64,000 nucleotides of DNA from a virus. The position numbers and the translations under genes are program-made. Shown piece by piece: positions 1,647 through 53,436 of this stretch (its first letter is position 1; each line of letters begins with the position of its first letter). The DNA lies in IMG/VR virus record IMGVR_UViG_3300049489_001113, positions 36,479 through 100,478 of that record. One strand, written 5' to 3'. A model generated the notes under the pieces. It saw nothing but the letters and a program-made list of their open reading frames with translations, was not told the origin of the DNA and searched no databases.

Positions 1647-1770
1647 GATCACCGGCGCAGAACTCGCGCACATCCTCACCGCTGCCGGCGCACTCGTACC
1701 CGACTGTCCGCCACCCCTCCCTGGGACGGCGTGCGAACATCTCGAGCTTCTCCATGCCCGGGAACATCAA
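1606..1770 (-). pseudogene. Orphaned original 3' end of the MT-A70 methyltransferase gene
   Basis: Encodes LMFPGMEKLEMFARRPREGWRTVGYECAGSGEDVREF, paralogous to the current MTase C-terminus MFVSLDKLELFARRDRPGWTCVGNECPSTSGVDIRDW; genome-typical GC3. Confidence 0.8.
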
Positions 1771-2387
1771 CACCATGAACGCGCTTCGTTGACGTGCGTA
1801 AACAGCTCCGCACGTAGTTTCACGGCGGCCGTGACGGCTGCCTCGAAAGAGTCGAAGCACCCCCCGTTGTGTCGAACTCCTTGGTGGCACACGCGAACCC
1901 TGAACCGCCCACCGTTCTCCAAGTACACGTTCCTATGTCCGGTGGACGACCTGCCACGCTGGTTCTGCACACTCTGCTGGGGAGTAACGACGCGGAGATT
2001 CGCGCGTCGATTGTTCAATCGGTTGCCGTCGATGTGGTCCACTGCAACCTCACGGCGCGTCTCTTGGAGCAGAAACCGGTGTAAGAACCCGCGCCTTGAT
2101 CGCACGTAACCGTGCGTATTCAAACTCCAGCGCCCTGCTCTCATAAGAAGCGGAACATCAGCTATATCAACAATGGTCCTGCTGACCACCGCACCTCGCC
2201 GATTCGTGAGGAGAAGCCACACACCATCAACCGCCTCCACCAGATCATTGAAGCCGCGTGAAATGGCGCCAGCCTTTCGTCTACGTTTGGCGGCGTAATG
2301 CGTGTTGCACACACCGTTCGCGTACCTGGGTCGCGGGCACCCTGCGACCCCGCAAGGGGACCTACTCTTACTGTTTGACCCAGTCAC
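1767..2387 (-). CDS. HNH-AP2 homing endonuclease with N-terminal Cys/His zinc finger
   Basis: CGVAGC..GVCNTHY; VDHIDGNRLNNRRANLR HNH core; AP2-like C-terminus (RNVY..RFRVRV..GCFDSFEAA); GTG start with GGAG RBS lying inside the MTase 3' end; lower GC. Confidence 0.88.
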   Translation of the reverse strand: MTGSNSKSRSPCGVAGCPRPRYANGVCNTHYAAKRRRKAGAISRGFNDLVEAVDGVWLLLTNRRGAVVSRTIVDIADVPLLMRAGRWSLNTHGYVRSRRGFLHRFLLQETRREVAVDHIDGNRLNNRRANLRVVTPQQSVQNQRGRSSTGHRNVYLENGGRFRVRVCHQGVRHNGGCFDSFEAAVTAAVKLRAELFTHVNEARSWC

Positions 2388-2994
2388 GGATATCAACTCC
2401 AGATGTTGATGGGCACTCGTTACCTACACAAGTCCATCCTGGTCTATCACGTCGGGCAAAGAGTTCCAACTTGTCTAAACTGACGAACATTGAGTCCAGC
2501 GCATCCTGCACGCACTCGGGCTTCGCGCTGTGCTTCAGGTTCGGTGCGAAGAACACGTTCCGCACCGACCTGTTCTCGAGCTTGTCGTACACCTTCCCTC
2601 GCGTACCCACGAGCATGAACTCGCACGCATTGCGGGCGAGCCGTCCCATCCCGAAGGCGATGTCGGACGCACCGATCTGAACGTCCTCGGCATCCACCTC
2701 GACGCCCTTGCCCGTCTTCACCCAAACCCATACCTGCTTCTGCTCGAACCCGTACGCGTCGACGGCGCACATCCCCGCGGAGATCATCGACGCCGGGCAC
2801 CAGAGAACGAGCACGGCGTCGTCCGCCGCGACGTTCTTCACGGGCAGGGTCACAATGTCTCGGATCGACATCGTCGTGTAGTTCGACCCGGCCCCCCTCG
2901 GTACGTCGCTCATCGTGAGCTTGTCCCCGAATTGCCAAGCTGGATCCGAAACAATCACTCCATACTTCTTCTGTTCCACGCGTTCTCCCTTCAC
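2368..2994 (-). CDS. MT-A70 family N6-adenine methyltransferase
   Basis: IVSDPAW (DPPW-like), WVWVK, E-x-x-LVG-x-RG, HSAKP, KLELFAR motifs. Confidence 0.9.
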   Translation of the reverse strand: MKGERVEQKKYGVIVSDPAWQFGDKLTMSDVPRGAGSNYTTMSIRDIVTLPVKNVAADDAVLVLWCPASMISAGMCAVDAYGFEQKQVWVWVKTGKGVEVDAEDVQIGASDIAFGMGRLARNACEFMLVGTRGKVYDKLENRSVRNVFFAPNLKHSAKPECVQDALDSMFVSLDKLELFARRDRPGWTCVGNECPSTSGVDIRDWVKQ

Positions 2995-3959: not shown

Positions 3960-4522
3960 CAGCGCAACCCGAAGTCGCGGAGAATGACCGCGGTGGCTTC
4001 CTCGAGGCGCACCAGATCTCCGACGTTCATGATCGTGGCGTCGGCCTCGATCGATCGCTGCTCCGTCTCCGAGGCGTGCCCGTCGCCGTCGTACCCGGGG
4101 CGAGACACACGCACCAACTTCCCTCCGATTGAGCGGATCATCTCCGCCTCGTTCGCAAACCACACATCCGGCACGAGCCACAGCCGCACACCCGCGTCGC
4201 CTTCGATCCTGCACCGCAGGTTCTTCACCCACACCTGCGGGTCGATGCTCCGCCCGACCTCGGTGCCGAGGAGCTGCATCAGTTGACGCGGGGTCTTGTC
4301 CCAGCGAGGGTCCACGACCTCCTTGTGCTTGGGGTTGTGCATCTGCGCGTGCGACAGGTCGAAGATGATCTGCGCCGCCTCCTTCAATGGGGCAGCGAAG
4401 TGCGTCACCTGCACGCCGTCATCACCTGGCCGGTGCGTGAGCAGTTTCTTCGCGAGGCTGGCGAAGGTATCCTTGCCCGCCCCCTTGCTCCCAAGGATCC
4501 CGATCACACGAACGCTCATCAC
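3959..4522 (-). CDS. Deoxynucleoside monophosphate kinase
   Basis: GSKGAGKDT P-loop, FAAPLK, PRQLMQLLGTEVGR, DVxFxNE, HASE motifs. Confidence 0.9.
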   Translation of the reverse strand: MMSVRVIGILGSKGAGKDTFASLAKKLLTHRPGDDGVQVTHFAAPLKEAAQIIFDLSHAQMHNPKHKEVVDPRWDKTPRQLMQLLGTEVGRSIDPQVWVKNLRCRIEGDAGVRLWLVPDVWFANEAEMIRSIGGKLVRVSRPGYDGDGHASETEQRSIEADATIMNVGDLVRLEEATAVILRDFGLR

Positions 4523-6357
4523 GACACCCTCCCTTGCGCGAACAACCCGAGCGTACGGGGGAACGCGTCTGACAAGATCCGTTGCACGACAAGGGCGAAC
4601 TGCCTGATCTCAAACTGCGCGGCCTCATCGGTACGCAGCGCGAGGAAGGCGACCCACCCACGCAGGTTCGACGTCGCGCGCATGCGCGAGTACCGGCCCA
4701 CGGGAAGGATCACACGCGCGAGTTCCTTCGGTACCCCATCGGAGAGGGCCGACTGATAGTCATCCTCGAGCTGCGCGTAGCGGGCCACCAACTTACGGCG
4801 GTACGCCTCCGCCGAGACCGCATCGAGTTCGCGCGCACCGTGGATGCGGTTGGCCTGCTTGTTCGAGCCCGTCGCGTTCACCGTCAGCCGCTCGACGGTC
4901 GGGACGTAGTTCACGTCCGGCAGCGGGGTGTACCTGGCCGACATCTCGTTGTAGCCGAAGGGAACCCTGTGGCGGTGCCACTCGCGGAACACGAAGATGG
5001 GTGCCTGAACCTCGACGGTGATCCCCGCCATCTCGAACGGCGTGTTCCCAGAGAGGACAACTTTCCCCCCGCGTCGCACAACCAGTACCCCAGTGCGGGT
5101 GTTTGCGCAGTACACGGTGCCCTCGTATGGAACCCACGACGTATTCACACGGCTCTGATTGATCACTGGCTCCGTCATCCGCGACAAGAACATCATCCGG
5201 TAGAGACCAACGTCCGATCTCCCAACCTGAACACACTCCCCGGCGTGGATCGCGATGCGTTGAACGGCATCTGCGAGCGGCGCCGACATGGTCGTGTACT
5301 CCCAGGCTCCGCGCTTCTCTGAACCGTCCGAGTTGCGCAACCCATCAAGCAAGGCAGCCGCATCATCAGCACCAAGGTCCATCAGGAAGTCTGGAATACA
5401 CTTGTCTCCATCTGGTGTATAGAACCACCGCCGAAATGCGGAGGTCAGCCCGTCGGCGCGCACAACACACGAAGACAACTCGTCGCAGGCCCAGCCTACC
5501 CCCGCGCACACTTCCTTCAGGTACGCGATCTTCCGCTTCTTCCGAAGATGGAACTGGATCGAGTTGCGAACGGTGCCGTCGTCACGCCCAGCGAACCCAT
5601 CACCAAGGAAGAACCCAATCAACCGCAACAGCTCGCGCGAATCGTCGTGCTGCGGGAACCATTCCGATAAGTCCACATATGACCGCTTGCGCCGTGCATG
5701 CTTTCGATAGCGCACCATCGAACGGAACCCAAGCTCCTCCACGGTCTCCAGGCGCCATGGAGACCACACCTGTCGGTTCTCGCCAACCACACTCACCTTC
5801 GTCTGCACGTACATGCGGTGCCCCGGCGTTACGAGCAAGTCCACTCCGCCATGATCGACACGGTACATGTTCCCTTTGAACGGATCGGCAACGAGCTGGA
5901 GCGGGGCCTCATACACCAGGGACTCCGCAACAGGGTCCCAGCAACCGAGCAGGTCATCCTTCCGTACGTCTGGCCACGTCACGAAACCGCGCCGAGTCAG
6001 AACCTCGGTCGCCGCATCGTAGCAGTGGTGTTTGTGCTCCCACAGGTAGCGAAGGAGCTTTTCATCACCGGGCTTCGCGTCTTCGATTGCGACGTGCGCG
6101 CCACCGCGTTCCGTCGGGCAGTGGGTGTGTGGTAGACGACCTGTTGTACTCGACACGCCGCACGAGCAGCGAACCTCGCCCCATCCCTGGAACCCCTTGT
6201 TCGTGCTCATTCGTGCGGCCTCGATGATCTGCTCCTCCGAGCCCCACATCTCGATGAGCTTCACGAATCCGTGGTCGAGTACGGGAATCGGCTCCTCGTA
6301 CTTCTCCATCAACTGCGTCTTGTGCAAGTCCACCCTCATGTTGTCGTTCTCCCTCAC
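4519..6357 (-). CDS. thyX: Flavin-dependent thymidylate synthase, intein-containing
   Basis: AARMS, H-x-TPFE (after splicing), EWHRHR..YNEMSARY, ELARVILP, AQFEIR motifs. Confidence 0.92.
   Translation of the reverse strand: MRENDNMRVDLHKTQLMEKYEEPIPVLDHGFVKLIEMWGSEEQIIEAARMSTNKGFQGWGEVRCSCGVSSTTGRLPHTHCPTERGGAHVAIEDAKPGDEKLLRYLWEHKHHCYDAATEVLTRRGFVTWPDVRKDDLLGCWDPVAESLVYEAPLQLVADPFKGNMYRVDHGGVDLLVTPGHRMYVQTKVSVVGENRQVWSPWRLETVEELGFRSMVRYRKHARRKRSYVDLSEWFPQHDDSRELLRLIGFFLGDGFAGRDDGTVRNSIQFHLRKKRKIAYLKEVCAGVGWACDELSSCVVRADGLTSAFRRWFYTPDGDKCIPDFLMDLGADDAAALLDGLRNSDGSEKRGAWEYTTMSAPLADAVQRIAIHAGECVQVGRSDVGLYRMMFLSRMTEPVINQSRVNTSWVPYEGTVYCANTRTGVLVVRRGGKVVLSGNTPFEMAGITVEVQAPIFVFREWHRHRVPFGYNEMSARYTPLPDVNYVPTVERLTVNATGSNKQANRIHGARELDAVSAEAYRRKLVARYAQLEDDYQSALSDGVPKELARVILPVGRYSRMRATSNLRGWVAFLALRTDEAAQFEIRQFALVVQRILSDAFPRTLGLFAQGRVS
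5044..6024 (-). mobile_element. Intein (327 aa) with LAGLIDADG homing endonuclease in ThyX
   Basis: Starts CYDAATEVLT, block B VTPGH, LIGFFLGDG and LLDGLRNSDG motifs, ends VVLSGN followed by extein Thr. Confidence 0.92.
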
Positions 6358-27261: not shown

Positions 27262-27783
27262 ATGCTGAGCACGAACTCGTGGGCACTGCCTGTAGATCGC
27301 TTCTGGGCTGGGGTCGACAAGAACGGACCGATAGTACCGGGCTTGACCACTCCGTGCTGGTTGTGGCTGGGAAGCAGGAAAGCGCACCCTCAGCAAGACT
27401 ACGGATTCTTCCAGATCCAGAACCGACGCGTGGGCGTACACCGCTTCTCGTGGGAATTGCACTTCGGTCCCATACCCGACGGGCCGCACTGTGTTTGCCA
27501 CAAGTGCGACAACCCACCGTGCGTGAACCCTGATCACCTCTTCCTCGGTACGCGCCTGGAGAACAACCGCGACAAGGAAAGCAAGGGGCGAGCAAACAGG
27601 CCGCTCGGTGAGAACCACCCGCACGCGAAACTGACTGCGGAAGCAGTGCGTTGTATACGCGCTGAGAGAAGTTTACCACCGGGTAGCCGAACCACACTCC
27701 GGGAGCTGTCAGATCGCTTCGGCGTGGGGCCCGATGTGATCTGCGCCGTTGCCCGTGGACGGGGATGGCGCCATGTGCAGTGA
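27262..27783 (+). CDS. Free-standing HNH homing endonuclease
   Basis: RFW..VDK, CWLW.G, HRFSW, VCHKCDNPPCVNPDHLFLGT..EN, C-terminal HTH; opposite strand within baseplate operon. Confidence 0.92.
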   Translation: MLSTNSWALPVDRFWAGVDKNGPIVPGLTTPCWLWLGSRKAHPQQDYGFFQIQNRRVGVHRFSWELHFGPIPDGPHCVCHKCDNPPCVNPDHLFLGTRLENNRDKESKGRANRPLGENHPHAKLTAEAVRCIRAERSLPPGSRTTLRELSDRFGVGPDVICAVARGRGWRHVQ

Positions 27784-48364: not shown

Positions 48365-50170
48365 TCATCCCCGCCACCAGGCCCGACCCTCACGCATGCG
48401 CTGGTGTCGGGCGGTCTTGGTGTAGAAGGGGTTCTTCGGCGCGACCTCCACCTCCTTGAGCACCGCACCGGACTGGGTCGCGTAGATCGCGAGCATGTAG
48501 GAGTCCGGGTAGTCGTCGTGCATGTCCTTCACCTTGCGGCCCCCGCTGGACCGCTTCGGTGCCTCGACCACCATGTACTTCCCGCGCCAGCCCTTCTCGA
48601 GGTCCTCGAACTGCTGCTTGAACCGCTTGTACTTGGTGAGCTTCTGGACGGGGTAACCGGCCGGGTAGGTGGCGCGGTTCGCGCGCACCTCCTGCTGGAG
48701 GAGCGTGTACCCCTGGTGCTTCGTCGCCTGGTTGAACACGAAGGCCACGACCTGGATGTCGAACGGCTTCAACTCGGCACGGAGTCGATCGTAGATGGGA
48801 TCACCTCGTCCGGTGGCGTCCACCGCCACACAGTCGATGCGGTAGTTCTTCAGGAAGCTCACGATCTGCGGATACTGCTGCTCGTGGTCGTCGCCGTGCA
48901 GCTCGAGCCAGTTGGCGATGTGCGTGTAGTAGACGGTCTTCTCGCCCACCTTGATGGGGTTCTCCCACCAGACGCGGAGGACGGTGACGACCGTGCTGTC
49001 GCCGTCGCGCCCGATGTCGATGCCGGCCACGTGCCGGTTCTTCGAGTCGAACGTGACCAGATTGCTCGCGCACATGAAGAGGGAGGCGCGGCCCGAACCG
49101 ATCTGCCTGCGGAGCAAACGGTTCCGCTTGAGGCCGCACTCGTTCAACTCCTCGGTGGAGATGAAAGTGCTCCGCTCAAGGATCCAGTGCAGGCGGTACG
49201 CCATGCGGAACTCGTCGGAGTCCTCCCCGAGACGATCCCTCTCGGCCTTGACGTACTTCGCGTACCGCTTCGACCATCGCGCGCACTCCGTCCAGTCGTA
49301 CTCGAAGTGCTGCTTCTTCCACTTGTCCTTGCCGGACAGGTTGAGGTCCTTGCGCCGGTTGCGCTGGCAGGCGTCGTAGAACTCGCACCGCTCCGTGCTC
49401 GGTGTGCCGAGCATCACGATGGTGGCCGCGGTGCGCGCGCCGCTCGGGCGGATCGACTTTTTCATCCTGATGTCAGGGATGAACTGCGTCTCGTCCGTGA
49501 TGATCAGGTGGTACGTGTGCCCTTCGATCGGGACCTTCGGGTGCGTGGTGTGTGCCTCGACACGCGAACCGTTCGGGAGCGCGAGCGCCTTCGCGTCCTC
49601 CGGCAGGTCGATGCCCACCTCCTCGTCCTGCATCACCTCCCGCATCCCGTGGCTGTAGACGCGATCCTGGATGCGGGCGCAGAGGATGTTGACCGTGTCG
49701 TACGACGGGGCGAACACGCCGATGTGGATCCCGTTCTTGAACTTCGCGAGCCGCTCGTCCGGGATCTGCTGCGCGAGGGTGGGAAGGAGGACCATGAGCC
49801 CCGCCACCACGATCGCAATAGTCTCCGTTTTACCAGCTTGGCGGCTGATAAGTGCGGTTAGTTCGGCGACGTCCTCGAGCAGGATCGAGCGCACCATCCG
49901 CGTCGCGAATTCGGTCTGGTAGGGGGCGAGCGGGATCCCCACCGCCTCGATGATGAGCGTCGTGAGCTTGTCGGCCAGCTCGATCATCACCTCGTCGGGG
50001 ATGCGCGTCTCGACGCCGTCCCCGATGCCCTGCTCCACGGAGGGGGTCTTGGGGACGCGCTTCGGCTTCGGCGCCTTGCCCTTGCGTGGCTTCTGTGGGA
50101 ACGCGGGAATCCCGGCGCCGCCGGCGACGCCATCTTTCGTGTTGCGGGAATCGAAGGGACCGAGGCCCAC
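48365..50170 (-). CDS. terL: Terminase large subunit
   Basis: PYQ, SRQAGKT Walker A, IITDE Walker B, GTP, AGIDIG and HDDYPDS nuclease motifs. Confidence 0.93.
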   Translation of the reverse strand: MGLGPFDSRNTKDGVAGGAGIPAFPQKPRKGKAPKPKRVPKTPSVEQGIGDGVETRIPDEVMIELADKLTTLIIEAVGIPLAPYQTEFATRMVRSILLEDVAELTALISRQAGKTETIAIVVAGLMVLLPTLAQQIPDERLAKFKNGIHIGVFAPSYDTVNILCARIQDRVYSHGMREVMQDEEVGIDLPEDAKALALPNGSRVEAHTTHPKVPIEGHTYHLIITDETQFIPDIRMKKSIRPSGARTAATIVMLGTPSTERCEFYDACQRNRRKDLNLSGKDKWKKQHFEYDWTECARWSKRYAKYVKAERDRLGEDSDEFRMAYRLHWILERSTFISTEELNECGLKRNRLLRRQIGSGRASLFMCASNLVTFDSKNRHVAGIDIGRDGDSTVVTVLRVWWENPIKVGEKTVYYTHIANWLELHGDDHEQQYPQIVSFLKNYRIDCVAVDATGRGDPIYDRLRAELKPFDIQVVAFVFNQATKHQGYTLLQQEVRANRATYPAGYPVQKLTKYKRFKQQFEDLEKGWRGKYMVVEAPKRSSGGRKVKDMHDDYPDSYMLAIYATQSGAVLKEVEVAPKNPFYTKTARHQRMREGRAWWRG

Positions 50171-50191
50171 GGAGCCACCTCTCGTCCGATG

Positions 50192-50581
50192 CTACTGCGA
50201 GTTCCCCGCGAGCCACACATCGATCCCGTCCGTGAACGGCCCGGTGGCGACAGTGATCTCCACGGCCACGCGATCCGCACCGTCGAGATCGAAGCTCTTG
50301 TAGGACGGACTGTTCGCGGCCGCGACCACGACCGTCCCGAGCGTCGGGTGCAGCACCCACAGCCCGGCGACGTCGAGCCACAACCACACCCGGAACGACA
50401 CGGTCGTCCCATCGTGCTTCACGACGATGTGCCCCTTCTTCGCGTTACCACCGGCGAAGCCGTCCGCCTGGAGCGTCGGTGCGGCGACCACCGCCGTGGC
50501 AGCCGCGATCACGCGCCGAGCGGCCGTTGTTGCCCCCTGCTTGAGGGAGACGGGGTGTCGCTTCTGGTTCGGGGCGCTCAT
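50192..50581 (-). CDS. Hypothetical protein (129 aa)
   Basis: GGAGG RBS; GC3 bias. Confidence 0.65.
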   Translation of the reverse strand: MSAPNQKRHPVSLKQGATTAARRVIAAATAVVAAPTLQADGFAGGNAKKGHIVVKHDGTTVSFRVWLWLDVAGLWVLHPTLGTVVVAAANSPSYKSFDLDGADRVAVEITVATGPFTDGIDVWLAGNSQ

Positions 50582-50603
50582 GAAATCCTCCGGGCCTGTT
50601 GAC

Positions 50604-51539
50604 CTAACCCGCGGCTTGTTTCCGCCAGTGTAGCCACTTCGCCAGTTCTTTGTCCCTCGGCTCGATGTCGGTGCGCCCGATCACGAACAGCGACCAGGCG
50701 TCCTGCGCGTACCGACCCACCCCAGGGATGTCCCTCACGTCCCGGTGTCGGTAAGGCAGGAGGTGGATCCCCCGCCGCACGATGGATCGGCACATGGCCA
50801 CGATCCTGTCGGCCCGCACACGCTGCAGCCCCAGGGGACGAAGCAGCGGCTCGAGATCGGCGGATCGCGCCTCGGCGAGGTCCTCGGCTCTGGGCCACCT
50901 GGTGACGATGTCGATCAGGATGGGGAGGGCGCGCCGACCCTTCGTCCTGTTGCACAGCGCGCACGCGAGCAGCACGCGCCACGGTCGGGCCTGAACCACC
51001 GGGTGCTCCTGCACCAGGAGGTACGGGCTAACCCTCGTCCTCGCCGCGGATGTTGAGGGCCCCGAGCGCGCAGAGGACGAGGATGTACGCCACAACCGCT
51101 CCGTGCATGAGTCGCCTGGGGAAACTCGGCCTTCCTGCTTCCACGTCTCACCTCTCGTGACGAGGCCCACCGTTGCGCGGTGCACACCTTGTATCTCCGC
51201 GAGTGCGGCCTGTGACCAGCGCCCCGACTCTGCCGCCTCGCGGATCGCCTTGATCCTCTGTGGGTCGAGCTTCGCTCGTCCGTTTCGGTTCCCGGAGACG
51301 ACCCTCGATAGCGGCCGCAGGGTGACCCCTGCGATCTGCTGCTGGCGGTGGCGCAGGCACAGCCCCTTCGCCTTGTGCGGACGCGTGCATCCCTCGAAGG
51401 TGCACATCGGAGAGGCGGGCTTCTCCCGCACGACCAGGGCCCTCGGCGTCGTCCCGCGCTGCACCTGCCGCAGATGTGCGGCGCACCATCCCCGCCCGCG
51501 CGCCGGACGACCGCAGTCGTCGAACGCGCACGTCTTCAC
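50604..51539 (-). CDS. Two zinc fingers + HTH fused to MBD4-like HhH-GPD DNA glycosylase
   Basis: Two C..C....GxC..H fingers, AKL..I..IR..HTH..W; then SPYLLVQE..PWRVLLAC.LCNRT.G, L.PLGL, IPGVGRYA.DA, EPRDK.L..W. Confidence 0.8.
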   Translation of the reverse strand: MKTCAFDDCGRPARGRGWCAAHLRQVQRGTTPRALVVREKPASPMCTFEGCTRPHKAKGLCLRHRQQQIAGVTLRPLSRVVSGNRNGRAKLDPQRIKAIREAAESGRWSQAALAEIQGVHRATVGLVTRGETWKQEGRVSPGDSCTERLWRTSSSSARSGPSTSAARTRVSPYLLVQEHPVVQARPWRVLLACALCNRTKGRRALPILIDIVTRWPRAEDLAEARSADLEPLLRPLGLQRVRADRIVAMCRSIVRRGIHLLPYRHRDVRDIPGVGRYAQDAWSLFVIGRTDIEPRDKELAKWLHWRKQAAG

Positions 51540-51958
51540 TCCCTCGTACCCACGAGCGACCAGAAGGCGGAGAACAGGTTCCGCCACCTCTGGTTGTCCT
51601 CGGCGAGCACATCCGTGATCGCCTCGAGCCGCGCCAACCGCTCCTCGACGGACAGGTCCTCCGTGTTGACGTTCCTCGTGTCCGGCGTCGGGCCTTCCTC
51701 CTCATCGTCGGGCTCACCTCGATCGGACATCCCCAGCGCGAAGGCCACGACATCCTGTGCCGTGGAGCCCGCACCGAACACGCGATCCTCGTCGGTGCTG
51801 ATGTCCTCGCCGTAGCGGTGGCCGACCAGCTTGTCGCCGCGCATCTGCAGGATGAGGATGCACCGCCCCTCCTTGTCGTGAAGCTCGCCGCCGTCCTGGA
51901 GGTGCAGGCCGAACTTGTTGGCCGTCACAGCGAGTTGTTCGAGGAAGGTGTGCGTCAT
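51536..51958 (-). CDS. Hypothetical protein (140 aa)
   Basis: GC3 bias; GTGA coupling downstream. Confidence 0.65.
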   Translation of the reverse strand: MTHTFLEQLAVTANKFGLHLQDGGELHDKEGRCILILQMRGDKLVGHRYGEDISTDEDRVFGAGSTAQDVVAFALGMSDRGEPDDEEEGPTPDTRNVNTEDLSVEERLARLEAITDVLAEDNQRWRNLFSAFWSLVGTRE

Positions 51959-52043
51959 GGGACAGCGGTATCACCGTCCAGCCACGGGCGTCGAGGGTGC
52001 CCCGGATCCATGTCCGGTTAGGACTGGCGCAACGGAGAACACG

Positions 52044-52373
52044 ATGAAGACGTTCCACCTCTACAGACACGAGGATGAATCTGGGGTTTCTGGTACAGGC
52101 CGGGTCGCCCAGGGCGTCGTGTTCGACGATGGGCAGGCCGTACTGCGGTGGCTCGGGGAGCATCCGAGCACGACCGTCTACCCGAACATCGGGGAGGTGA
52201 AGGCCATCCACGGACACCAGGGGAAGACGGAGGTGGTCATGGACGCCGACTACCGCGGTGCGCTGGGGGAGGTCCTCAAGGCCGCGAACACGAACCTCGC
52301 GGATCTGCTGCTCGAGAAGGTCGGCGACTCCAAGGTGCGCAAGATCCTCGAGGAGCGCGACATCCTGACGTGA
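52044..52373 (+). CDS. Conserved phage hypothetical protein (F.L.R.ED.SGVSGTG.VA.GV.F.DG family)
   Basis: Recognisable motif of a small phage protein family; GGAG RBS. Confidence 0.8.
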   Translation: MKTFHLYRHEDESGVSGTGRVAQGVVFDDGQAVLRWLGEHPSTTVYPNIGEVKAIHGHQGKTEVVMDADYRGALGEVLKAANTNLADLLLEKVGDSKVRKILEERDILT

Positions 52374-52595
52374 TCAGCGGGCGGTGCGCAGCTTCACGGG
52401 CGGCATGTTCATGTCGGGGTGGGCCGCGATCACAACCGGCCTCTTCTTCACCAACCTCCGCACCATCGTGTCGTCGTCGTTCTCGAGCACCTGCAACGCG
52501 TCCCCAAGGCGCCAGAGGTCGTCTTTCTCGGAAAGTTCCACGCATAGCTCGTCCAGGCGATCCGCGTGCTGGAGCAGCCGCATCTCACGGGGCAT
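52374..52595 (-). CDS. Hypothetical protein (73 aa)
   Basis: Overlaps the upstream gene; plausible composition. Confidence 0.5.
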   Translation of the reverse strand: MPREMRLLQHADRLDELCVELSEKDDLWRLGDALQVLENDDDTMVRRLVKKRPVVIAAHPDMNMPPVKLRTAR

Positions 52596-52950
52596 CCGTC
52601 ACCCCCAAGTATTGCAGAACCCCCAGCTTCGCTGCGAGCCAGAACGCAAGTGCTGTGAGGGCGAACTGCACTGCAGGTGACTTTAGCGCCGCGTCTGCGA
52701 ACTTCGCAAGCGCCGTTGTCTGCCCCTCACGCTTCGCCCGCTCGTCCGCCAGTTCCTTCAGGAAGTTCTCGATGCGGAGCATGATGTCCGCCTGCCTGCG
52801 GATCTCCGTACGCAGCTCGTCTACGGCTTTCGACTGGAGCCCGGAGGAGTTGACCACGTCCCGCAGGTCAAGCGCGACCTCACGCATGGACGACGACGTC
52901 TCGCGGATCGCGTCGACGAGGATCTCTGCGCTCCCGCGTTCGTTTCCCAT
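52585..52950 (-). CDS. Coiled-coil protein with C-terminal TM
   Basis: GAGGGGAG RBS; FALTALAFWLAAKLGVL TM. Confidence 0.65.
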   Translation of the reverse strand: MGNERGSAEILVDAIRETSSSMREVALDLRDVVNSSGLQSKAVDELRTEIRRQADIMLRIENFLKELADERAKREGQTTALAKFADAALKSPAVQFALTALAFWLAAKLGVLQYLGVTDAP

Positions 52951-52977
52951 GCTCCCCTCATCGTACAGGATTCCGCC

Positions 52978-53202
52978 TCAACGTCGTACAGCGTCCTCAG
53001 CCAACTGGCGCAACCAGGTCTCGAGCGTGCGGTGATCCGGTAGGTACGGGGTCCTTCTCCTGCGGTCACGCAGGACGATCACGGGGTCGTGGTCAAGGTC
53101 AACGACGACGTGCGCCTCGGCGGCGACGGCGTCGAAGTCCGCCGGATCTACCCGTGCGGCCCTCGGGTGTCCGTTGTTGACCAGGAGCAACAGCATCGAC
53201 AC
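52978..53202 (-). CDS. Hypothetical protein (74 aa)
   Basis: Fills the gap in a minus-strand run. Confidence 0.45.
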   Translation of the reverse strand: MSMLLLLVNNGHPRAARVDPADFDAVAAEAHVVVDLDHDPVIVLRDRRRRTPYLPDHRTLETWLRQLAEDAVRR

Positions 53203-53232
53203 CAGATACCGCGTCTGGCGGAAGCCGGCAGC

Positions 53233-53436
53233 CTACCTTTCCCGGGGCGTCTTGGGGAGGGTGTCCACGCTCACCGCCCCCGCAGCCTCCTCGTCGAACC
53301 TCGTACCGCGCGAAAGCCACTCATCGAGGTCCACCTCGAACTCCTGCCCCGTCTCCACGCGCACATACCGCACCACCACACGCTTCCCCACGAGACGGCG
53401 CACGCTGCCACCCCCTCGCCACTCGGACGGGATCAC
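53233..53436 (-). CDS. Hypothetical protein
   Basis: GGAGG RBS, GTGA coupling. Confidence 0.5.
   Translation of the reverse strand: MIPSEWRGGGSVRRLVGKRVVVRYVRVETGQEFEVDLDEWLSRGTRFDEEAAGAVSVDTLPKTPRER

Follow-up and report, generated by a model that had tools for sequence, protein, structure and literature searches.

The mismatch glycosylase MBD4 of human and mouse joins a DNA-binding domain through a long linker to a C-terminal glycosylase (PMC4176167), in which Asp560 is the catalytic residue, Arg468 the intercalating residue, and L447-V448-Q449 the base pocket, with Gln449 being essential (PMC3479182). The phage protein described here follows the same logic and has a homologous catalytic domain, ~30% identical over the whole fold, with the pocket residues and the Asp in place and no Fe-S cluster. 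It differs in that it is not eukaryotic and has no methyl-CpG-binding domain, carrying two CCCH fingers and a homing-type HTH module instead. Stand-alone phage HhH-GPD proteins (Xp12 QNN97216.1, the "ENDO3c domain" protein of Stenotrophomonas phage AXL_1, and the metagenomic proteins P0007, P0008 and P0011) have the same catalytic domain at 40-51% identity, but they are 130-190 aa long and are without the DNA-binding extension. The best database matches among these stand-alone relatives come from the Xp12 group of Xanthomonas and Stenotrophomonas phages. In Xp12, whose DNA carries 5mC (PMC7653180), the gene adjoins genes for a HAD hydrolase, a "thymidylate synthase" and a dCMP deaminase and lies in a nucleotide-modification module, whereas the gene described here lies by packaging genes. 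Literature searches for phage MBD4-like enzymes returned nothing.

Fingers like those of the N-terminal half occur at 35-47% identity in actinophage zinc-finger HNH and endonuclease VII proteins (PHROGs 1271, 5351 and 19978; Mycobacterium phage Abrogate gp1), some of which share the HTH that follows as well, but the catalytic part is a His-Me finger nuclease there and a glycosylase here. I-TevI-type homing endonucleases have a zinc finger and HTH unit, a flexible linker and a separate GIY-YIG nuclease domain; the phage protein likewise links finger and HTH flexibly to a separate catalytic domain, although the domain order is reversed and the I-TevI catalytic domain is GIY-YIG. Mig.MthI (PDB 1KEA) and Vsr are functional analogues in that T:G correction is encoded with or on a mobile element. 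These T:G repair functions travel with C5-methyltransferases, and such a partner was not found in the phage genome. Mig, a weak homologue of the phage domain, differs further in its Fe-S cluster and in having no separate targeting domain, and Vsr is an endonuclease of unrelated fold. Base excision, and not phosphodiester cleavage, is also used in genetic conflict by the sequence-specific restriction glycosylase R.PabI (PMC4357717), by the defense glycosylase Brig1 (PMC11078745) and by Dag; defense glycosylases of the HhH superfamily have been described as well (bioRxiv 10.1101/2025.10.29.685425). R.PabI, Brig1 and Dag differ from the phage protein in having other folds (HALFPIPE, UDG) or belonging to other HhH branches, and in being host-encoded single-domain enzymes.

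Both halves of the phage protein are of known kinds. A glycosylase replacing the nuclease on a homing-endonuclease scaffold appears in none of the papers searched, and in searches of billions of proteins the sole other one found with this combination is P0002, a relative of 250 aa with 62% identity.

The open frame and its strain variants

The window, that is, the whole 64,000-nucleotide stretch analyzed here, forms the final 64 kb of an IMG/VR virus record of 100,478 bp with a completeness rating of 97%, and its source is an uncultivated freshwater phage with a genome of ~100 kb and 65% G+C. The minus-strand frame is free of stops from 51587 down to the stop codon at 50604-50606, in agreement with the single uninterrupted frame of 311 aa reported in a preliminary description of this locus. 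The start codon GTG at 51539 and the stop codon TGA of the ORF before it share the sequence GTGA. With this GTG as the start, finger 1 falls at residue 4, in line with homologues in which the match begins at residues 2-7, and we take 50604-51539 as the gene; all domains and active-site residues are numbered from the alternative GTG at 51587. The predicted full-length product is ~34 kDa and strongly basic, with a pI of about 11.1-11.2. Features are collected in Table 1.

Table 1. Coordinates of the gene, its parts and the neighboring or related genes (window positions unless marked; residues counted from the GTG at 51587)
Feature	Position	Strand	Basis or remark
Whole gene, 311 aa + stop	50604..51539	(-)	Open frame
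Alternative start GTG	51587	(-)	Would yield 327 aa
Zinc finger 1, C20-x4-C25-x9-C35-x2-H38	51474..51530	(-)	Ligands, AF2, PHROG matches
Zinc finger 2, C62-x4-C67-x9-C77-x2-H80	51348..51404	(-)	Ligands, AF2
HTH module (NGRAKL..IKAIRE..W..LA...GV...V..V.RGETW), residues 99-152	51132..51293	(-)	phrog_517, Pfam, P0002
Ser/Arg-rich linker, 34 residues (153-186)	51030..51131	(-)	AF2, P0002, strain fragments
MBD4-type HhH-GPD domain, residues 187-327	50607..51029	(-)	PF00730, MBD4 match, AF2, Foldseek
Putative catalytic Asp codon, D312 (= human MBD4 Asp560)	50652..50654	(-)	Alignment
140-aa ORF, function not assigned	51536..51958	(-)	Upstream; its stop overlaps the gene start
129-aa ORF, function not assigned	50192..50581	(-)	Downstream, 22 nt past the gene's stop
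Large terminase (TerL)	48365..50170	(-)	Terminase_6N + Terminase_6C; same direction as the gene
Five HNH_3 genes	Genome G000:C1 578-688, 6949-7047, 17238-17324; window 1767-2396, 27262-27783		HNH_3 search

Over 49500-52500 the sequence is identical in an independently assembled Logan contig of 45.5 kb, which comes from the probable source sample, and runs from three other studies of aquatic and freshwater metagenomes yielded fragments that are 95-99% alike. The sequencing runs listed for this sequence include no RNA data set. Between them, the fragments span most of the gene: the linker is covered at 50995-51145 and 50890-51151, the 3' junction at 50566-50772 and the 5' junction at 51466-51656, and no indel or stop occurs inside the gene. 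The differences listed are the best-supported 40 of 95 and come from low-depth fragments; of the 38 that fall within the gene, 31 are synonymous and 7 non-synonymous, and residues 24-128 hold 21 synonymous versus 3 non-synonymous differences in this same set. By these counts both halves are under purifying selection in this frame, the direction being clear despite the low depth. The 21:3 ratio excludes overlapping alternative ORFs and a decaying remnant as its source, and since the N-terminal half has no stop after it, translating that half necessarily gives the fusion. The best explanation is that the gene is intact and translated as one polypeptide, and we consider it very likely that the fusion is a real single protein.

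The preliminary description had allowed for a different origin, in which a decayed HNH gene is read through by chance into a once-separate glycosylase gene. That idea draws on the missing HNH core, which usually accompanies such modules, but it does not fit a 21:3 ratio in the N-terminal half, strains free of indels and stops, intact zinc ligands, or a fusion kept in the 62%-identical relative with both halves equally conserved, and we give it hardly any credence. Neither a stop nor a frameshift was seen in the linker, which contigs of two other studies span without indels, and the fusion is not confined to this contig, being present in the fragments from three other studies and in P0002. GC3 is 0.88 for the fingers, 0.86 for the glycosylase, 0.75 for the HTH and 0.70 for the linker, against a genome mean of 0.857 +/- 0.048; the fingers and the glycosylase match the mean, which argues that neither half is a recent import.

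The glycosylase domain and its active site

The preliminary description placed a complete MBD4-type HhH-GPD domain after the Ser/Arg linker, and this assignment is borne out. The HhH-GPD family PF00730 matches with 30.7 bits versus a cut-off of 26.2, and the domain aligns to the MBD4 glycosylase with an E of 1e-15, compared with 3e-5 for endonuclease III (EndoIII) and 3e-4 for Mig. An AlphaFold (AF2) model built on a 58-sequence alignment, a check that the same description had proposed, gives a confident glycosylase fold (pLDDT 94-98). Foldseek comparison of the model returned MBD4 catalytic domains as all of the top 16 matches (TMt 0.81-0.87, ~30% identity), MBD4-DNA complexes among them, and Fe-S-bearing relatives came next at a TM of ~0.45.

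The MBD4 motifs and catalytic Asp that had been read from the sequence are likewise found in the alignment with human MBD4: the pocket L447-V448-Q449 aligns with L191-V192-Q193, and Arg468, Gly471, Tyr540 and Asp560 correspond to R214, G217, Y293 and D312. Both D312 and the hairpin Gly residues (G289-V-G291) are invariant in the 58-homologue alignment and in an 11-homologue alignment. The segment G-V-G-R292-Y293 corresponds to G-I-G-K-Y540 of MBD4, with Tyr replacing the lyase Lys after the hairpin, at what we take to be the position of the lyase lysine of EndoIII, Lys120. The domain contains only three Cys and no Cys4 motif, and hence no Fe-S cluster loop. Given Tyr in place of the lyase Lys and the missing cluster motif, the enzyme is most likely monofunctional. 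On this residue pattern it would most likely be a glycosylase with U, T or 5hmU opposite G as its substrates, and we lean modestly toward MBD4-like chemistry.

The domain belongs to the MBD4-type catalytic family, yet it is not an MBD4 orthologue. The methyl-CpG-binding domain PF01429 gave no match at E <= 1, and the true MBD-bearing relative P0152 is only 37% identical. The nth and mutY NCBIfam equivalogs fell below their cut-offs (33.2 versus 211.7 bits and 24.9 versus 286.5 bits), and a PADLOC scan of the gene returned only a weak match, to the "nicking endonuclease" model (Mig), at E 4e-4.

Every catalytic and pocket residue checked is kept in the phage protein. This tells against a dead or repurposed glycosylase that would serve as a mismatch- or DNA-binding factor, for example as a regulator or packaging accessory, a role that the gene's place in the packaging cluster and the loss of the Gln449 equivalent in P0002 would otherwise suit; we consider it very improbable.

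The pocket residues also bear on whether one frame gives two products, such that translation from an internal start supplies the functional glycosylase while the full-length form is minor or has a separate, for example regulatory, function. Such an arrangement would agree with the 136-aa JGI/IMG gene call from GTG V192, with two further in-frame starts, TTG L165 (GGAG 3 nt upstream) and GTG V197 (AGGAG 6 nt upstream), and with how common stand-alone viral relatives of 130-190 aa are. However, the 136-aa protein P0003, whose sequence equals residues 192-327, is the product of that JGI/IMG call on the contig studied here and is therefore not independent support for an internal start. Starting at V192 or V197 would remove residues of the L-V-Q pocket, stand-alone homologues all begin at least six residues ahead of the pocket Gln, the AGGAG before V197 consists simply of the conserved Q-E codons, and purifying selection acts on the N-terminal half, which lacks a stop of its own. 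We regard the two-product arrangement as improbable. TTG L165 is the only internal start able to give a complete short form, and a minor second product may arise from an internal start. We note that the JGI/IMG call, which starts at window position 51014, leaves ~190 selected codons unannotated and truncates the pocket.

The N-terminal half, the linker and the rarity of the fusion

The preliminary description read the N-terminal half as two fingers like those at the N-terminus of the HNH gene at 1767-2387 (1767-2396 in the present analysis), followed by an HTH like the C-terminus of the HNH gene at 27262. Both fingers are present with intact ligands, and the HTH shares the motif NGRAKL...IR...W with the C-terminus of the HNH_3 gene at 27262-27783, but the likeness is weak in each case, with a pairwise E of ~1e-3. 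The two window HNH genes share module types with the fusion but are not its recent copies. All four ligands of finger 1 are invariant in a 48-homologue alignment (A3), and those of finger 2 are at least 90% conserved in it; AF2 assigns pLDDT values of 94-97 and 91-97 to the two fingers. Three PHROGs annotated "HNH endonuclease" match the fingers through their N-terminal parts (E 1e-13 to 1e-15), and an exhaustive HMMER search of 1.84 billion representatives linked the fingers to hundreds of proteins, each with between one and nine units of this kind. A nuclease domain (HNH_3, HNH, Endonuclease_7 or zf-His_Me_endon) is present in 7 of the 10 finger homologues scanned. Only ~18 residues separate finger 2 from the HTH, which matches phrog_517 ("HTH DNA binding protein") at E 7.5e-6 and the Pfam families HTH_28 and HTH_23 weakly.

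As had been claimed, the nuclease core (beta-beta-alpha-metal) is absent: no HNH, HNH_3, Endonuclease_7 or other nuclease family matched the protein at E <= 1. A genome-wide HNH_3 search recovered five HNH_3-type endonuclease genes in the 100-kb genome and did not include the glycosylase fusion among them; only the gene at window 1767-2396 has a CCCH finger. The protein keeps the accessory CCCH fingers and the C-terminal-type HTH of HNH/His-Me finger endonucleases. The central proposal of the preliminary description, homing-endonuclease-type DNA-binding modules with an MBD4-like glycosylase replacing the nuclease, is supported by these domain matches. Neither Foldseek at E <= 0.001 nor VIA-align at Z >= 5 found a match for the N-terminal model, and to our knowledge there is neither a solved structure nor a DNA-binding assay for this finger family. 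DNA binding by the N-terminal half would be expected from the partners of the finger relatives and from its basic charge.

The linker is predicted with low confidence (AF2 pLDDT 34-62). It is 38% identical to that of P0002, with equal length and no gaps, and it holds four of the seven non-synonymous strain differences (at residues 173-179, among the best-supported 40 of 95 differences).

The preliminary description had also suggested a search for proteins of the same architecture. Among 5.8 billion proteins, a word-indexed search turned up a single relative with the fusion, P0002, and P0002 alone was found again by the HMMER search of 1.84 billion representatives and by a search with the glycosylase region among proteins of 179-573 aa. 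All other hits of the 1.84-billion search have fingers or a glycosylase, never both. P0002 aligns without gaps to residues 78-327 and is 67% identical in the HTH and 67% identical in the glycosylase, which argues that both domains diverged together as one gene. Its called start falls inside finger 2 and is for this reason probably mis-called. P0002 has His opposite Q193, the equivalent of MBD4 Gln449, where more than 90% of aligned homologues have Gln, and this His may reflect altered specificity or lost activity.

Scans of IMG/VR for relatives gave none, megablast against phage records gave no match, and a JGI metagenome scan returned nothing beyond a glycosylase of 28% identity, located on a 292-kb contig. 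Among cellular genomes, relatives turned up only on two small contigs of Actinomycetota MAGs, as stand-alone or internally deleted copies. One of these (L086:355-639) encodes a stand-alone glycosylase copy of 94 aa without the central helices, next to a 983-aa repeat protein resembling a tail fiber, and is probably a phage gene in decay. Among large Atlas clusters, the nearest consist of viral proteins 132-136 aa long (score 0.76, a lead only). Three prokaryote- or phage-like MBD4-type glycosylases (P0069, P0049 and P0139) have C-terminal extensions of 200-300 residues without a Pfam match, and the small glycosylase may have been tethered to different partners recurrently.

Gene neighborhood and possible roles

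The gene stands two genes upstream of the large terminase, in the order gene, 129-aa ORF, TerL, portal. A strong GGAGG lies 6 nt ahead of the ATG of the 129-aa ORF, and neither this ORF nor the 140-aa ORF upstream of the gene has a match in Pfam, PHROG, NCBIfam or PADLOC. No promoter-like or terminator-like sites were found within 49900-53300, and the cluster is uninterrupted. From its place among the packaging genes, the gene is probably made together with them. Eighty TerL relatives (<=46% identity) have none of the neighboring small ORFs in common, and no finger or glycosylase gene occurs within 6 kb of TerL in the same 80. The phage encodes PolA, RecA, DnaB, a primase, ThyX, a dCTP-deaminase-like protein, an MT-A70 adenine methyltransferase and HU. 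Neither a C5-cytosine methyltransferase nor a ThyA-type enzyme or ThyA-like dCMP methylase was found in the 97%-complete genome, so there is no sign of 5mC in the phage's own DNA.

The best explanation of the whole, to which we give an even chance, is a DNA-tethered MBD4-type mismatch glycosylase for the repair of deaminated cytosine. It is supported by the open frame, the domain identities, the active-site residues, the selection on both halves and the conservation of the fusion, and also by the nuclease-bearing relatives of the fingers, the basic charge and the place of stand-alone relatives beside nucleotide-modification genes in the Xp12 group. We infer the DNA binding, the substrate, the monofunctionality and the biological role as follows. 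The two CCCH fingers and the HTH, which come from a family otherwise joined to HNH or endonuclease VII nucleases, would keep the protein on DNA at preferred sites, and the flexible basic linker would give the C-terminal domain reach to nearby bases, where it would remove deaminated pyrimidines opposite G. Because the lyase lysine is missing, an abasic site would be left for host enzymes, and AP endonuclease, polymerase and ligase of the host would complete the repair. The protein would then most likely serve as a tethered repair enzyme for deaminated C or 5mC in phage DNA of 65% G+C. Several points weigh against repair: with no C5-methyltransferase or ThyA-like enzyme, a special need for G:T repair is not evident; homing-type DNA-binding modules are not obviously needed for ordinary repair; and the position of the essential Gln449 is His in P0002. 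We rate the repair role taken by itself as evenly balanced at best, and perhaps somewhat short of that.

The origin of the N-terminal modules in homing-endonuclease families, which are selfish nucleases, suggests a role in genetic conflict, the main rival to repair. The fingers and HTH would recognize a site or foreign DNA, the glycosylase would make abasic sites, and the host AP endonuclease would nick them. The outcome could be homing-like spread, biased gene conversion of G/T mismatches in heteroduplexes, or exclusion of co-infecting phages with unusual pyrimidines. The five HNH_3 genes in the genome are in keeping with such a role, as are the absence of the gene beside TerL in the 80 more distant relatives, which is as expected of an accessory gene, and an AT3-rich recoded patch over the TerL Walker A motif 740 bp downstream; R.PabI, Brig1 and the HhH-superfamily defense glycosylases provide precedents. 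On the other side, the substrate pocket is of the type found in enzymes that depend on a mismatch, and MBD4 excises no bases from normal pairs. The gene's codon usage has ameliorated completely, strains from other studies carry it stably between the same two junctions, and no empty-site allele or joint skipping the gene was seen in four runs, a weak point as it concerns contigs only. We consider a conflict role unlikely, and we judge it a little less likely still that the modules deliver the glycosylase to a defined site for sequence-targeted base excision, with spread, conversion bias or the disabling of competitors as the result.

If the N-terminal half is sequence-specific, the protein would do in nature what engineered DNA-targeted glycosylases do, removing bases at a chosen place with ~34 kDa of protein, and if it is targeted, the modular toolkit of homing endonucleases could drive chemistry other than strand cleavage. 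Were a sequence-targeted conflict role true, homing or exclusion would here be based on a glycosylase. If the protein only repairs DNA, it would still represent convergence on the design of MBD4, in which a reader domain is followed by a linker and a glycosylase. The gene adds to a little-studied family of small phage HhH-GPD glycosylases.

Three further observations concern other genes. In TerL, a patch over the Walker A motif (window 49817-49864, minus strand) consists of 16 codons for ELTALISRQAGKTETI, 10 of which end in A or T, in a gene with a GC3 of 0.92; a run from another study shows synonymous variation in it at 49841 and 49859. Gene conversion could have left such a tract, or the patch could be an allele that gives immunity to a homing enzyme of the phage. 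The minus-strand frame at window 4519-6357 encodes 612 aa with a GC3 of only 0.77, and its ThyX match is confined to residues 439-600 (profile positions 52-190 of 191); this frame may contain an intein or other insertion or may have a mis-set start. Finally, TerL matches in two related viral contigs (L008:6001-8679 and L013:1304-3763) span 2.5-2.7 kb for ~490-560 aligned residues, which suggests that the terminase genes of these relatives are interrupted by an insertion, for example an intein or intron.
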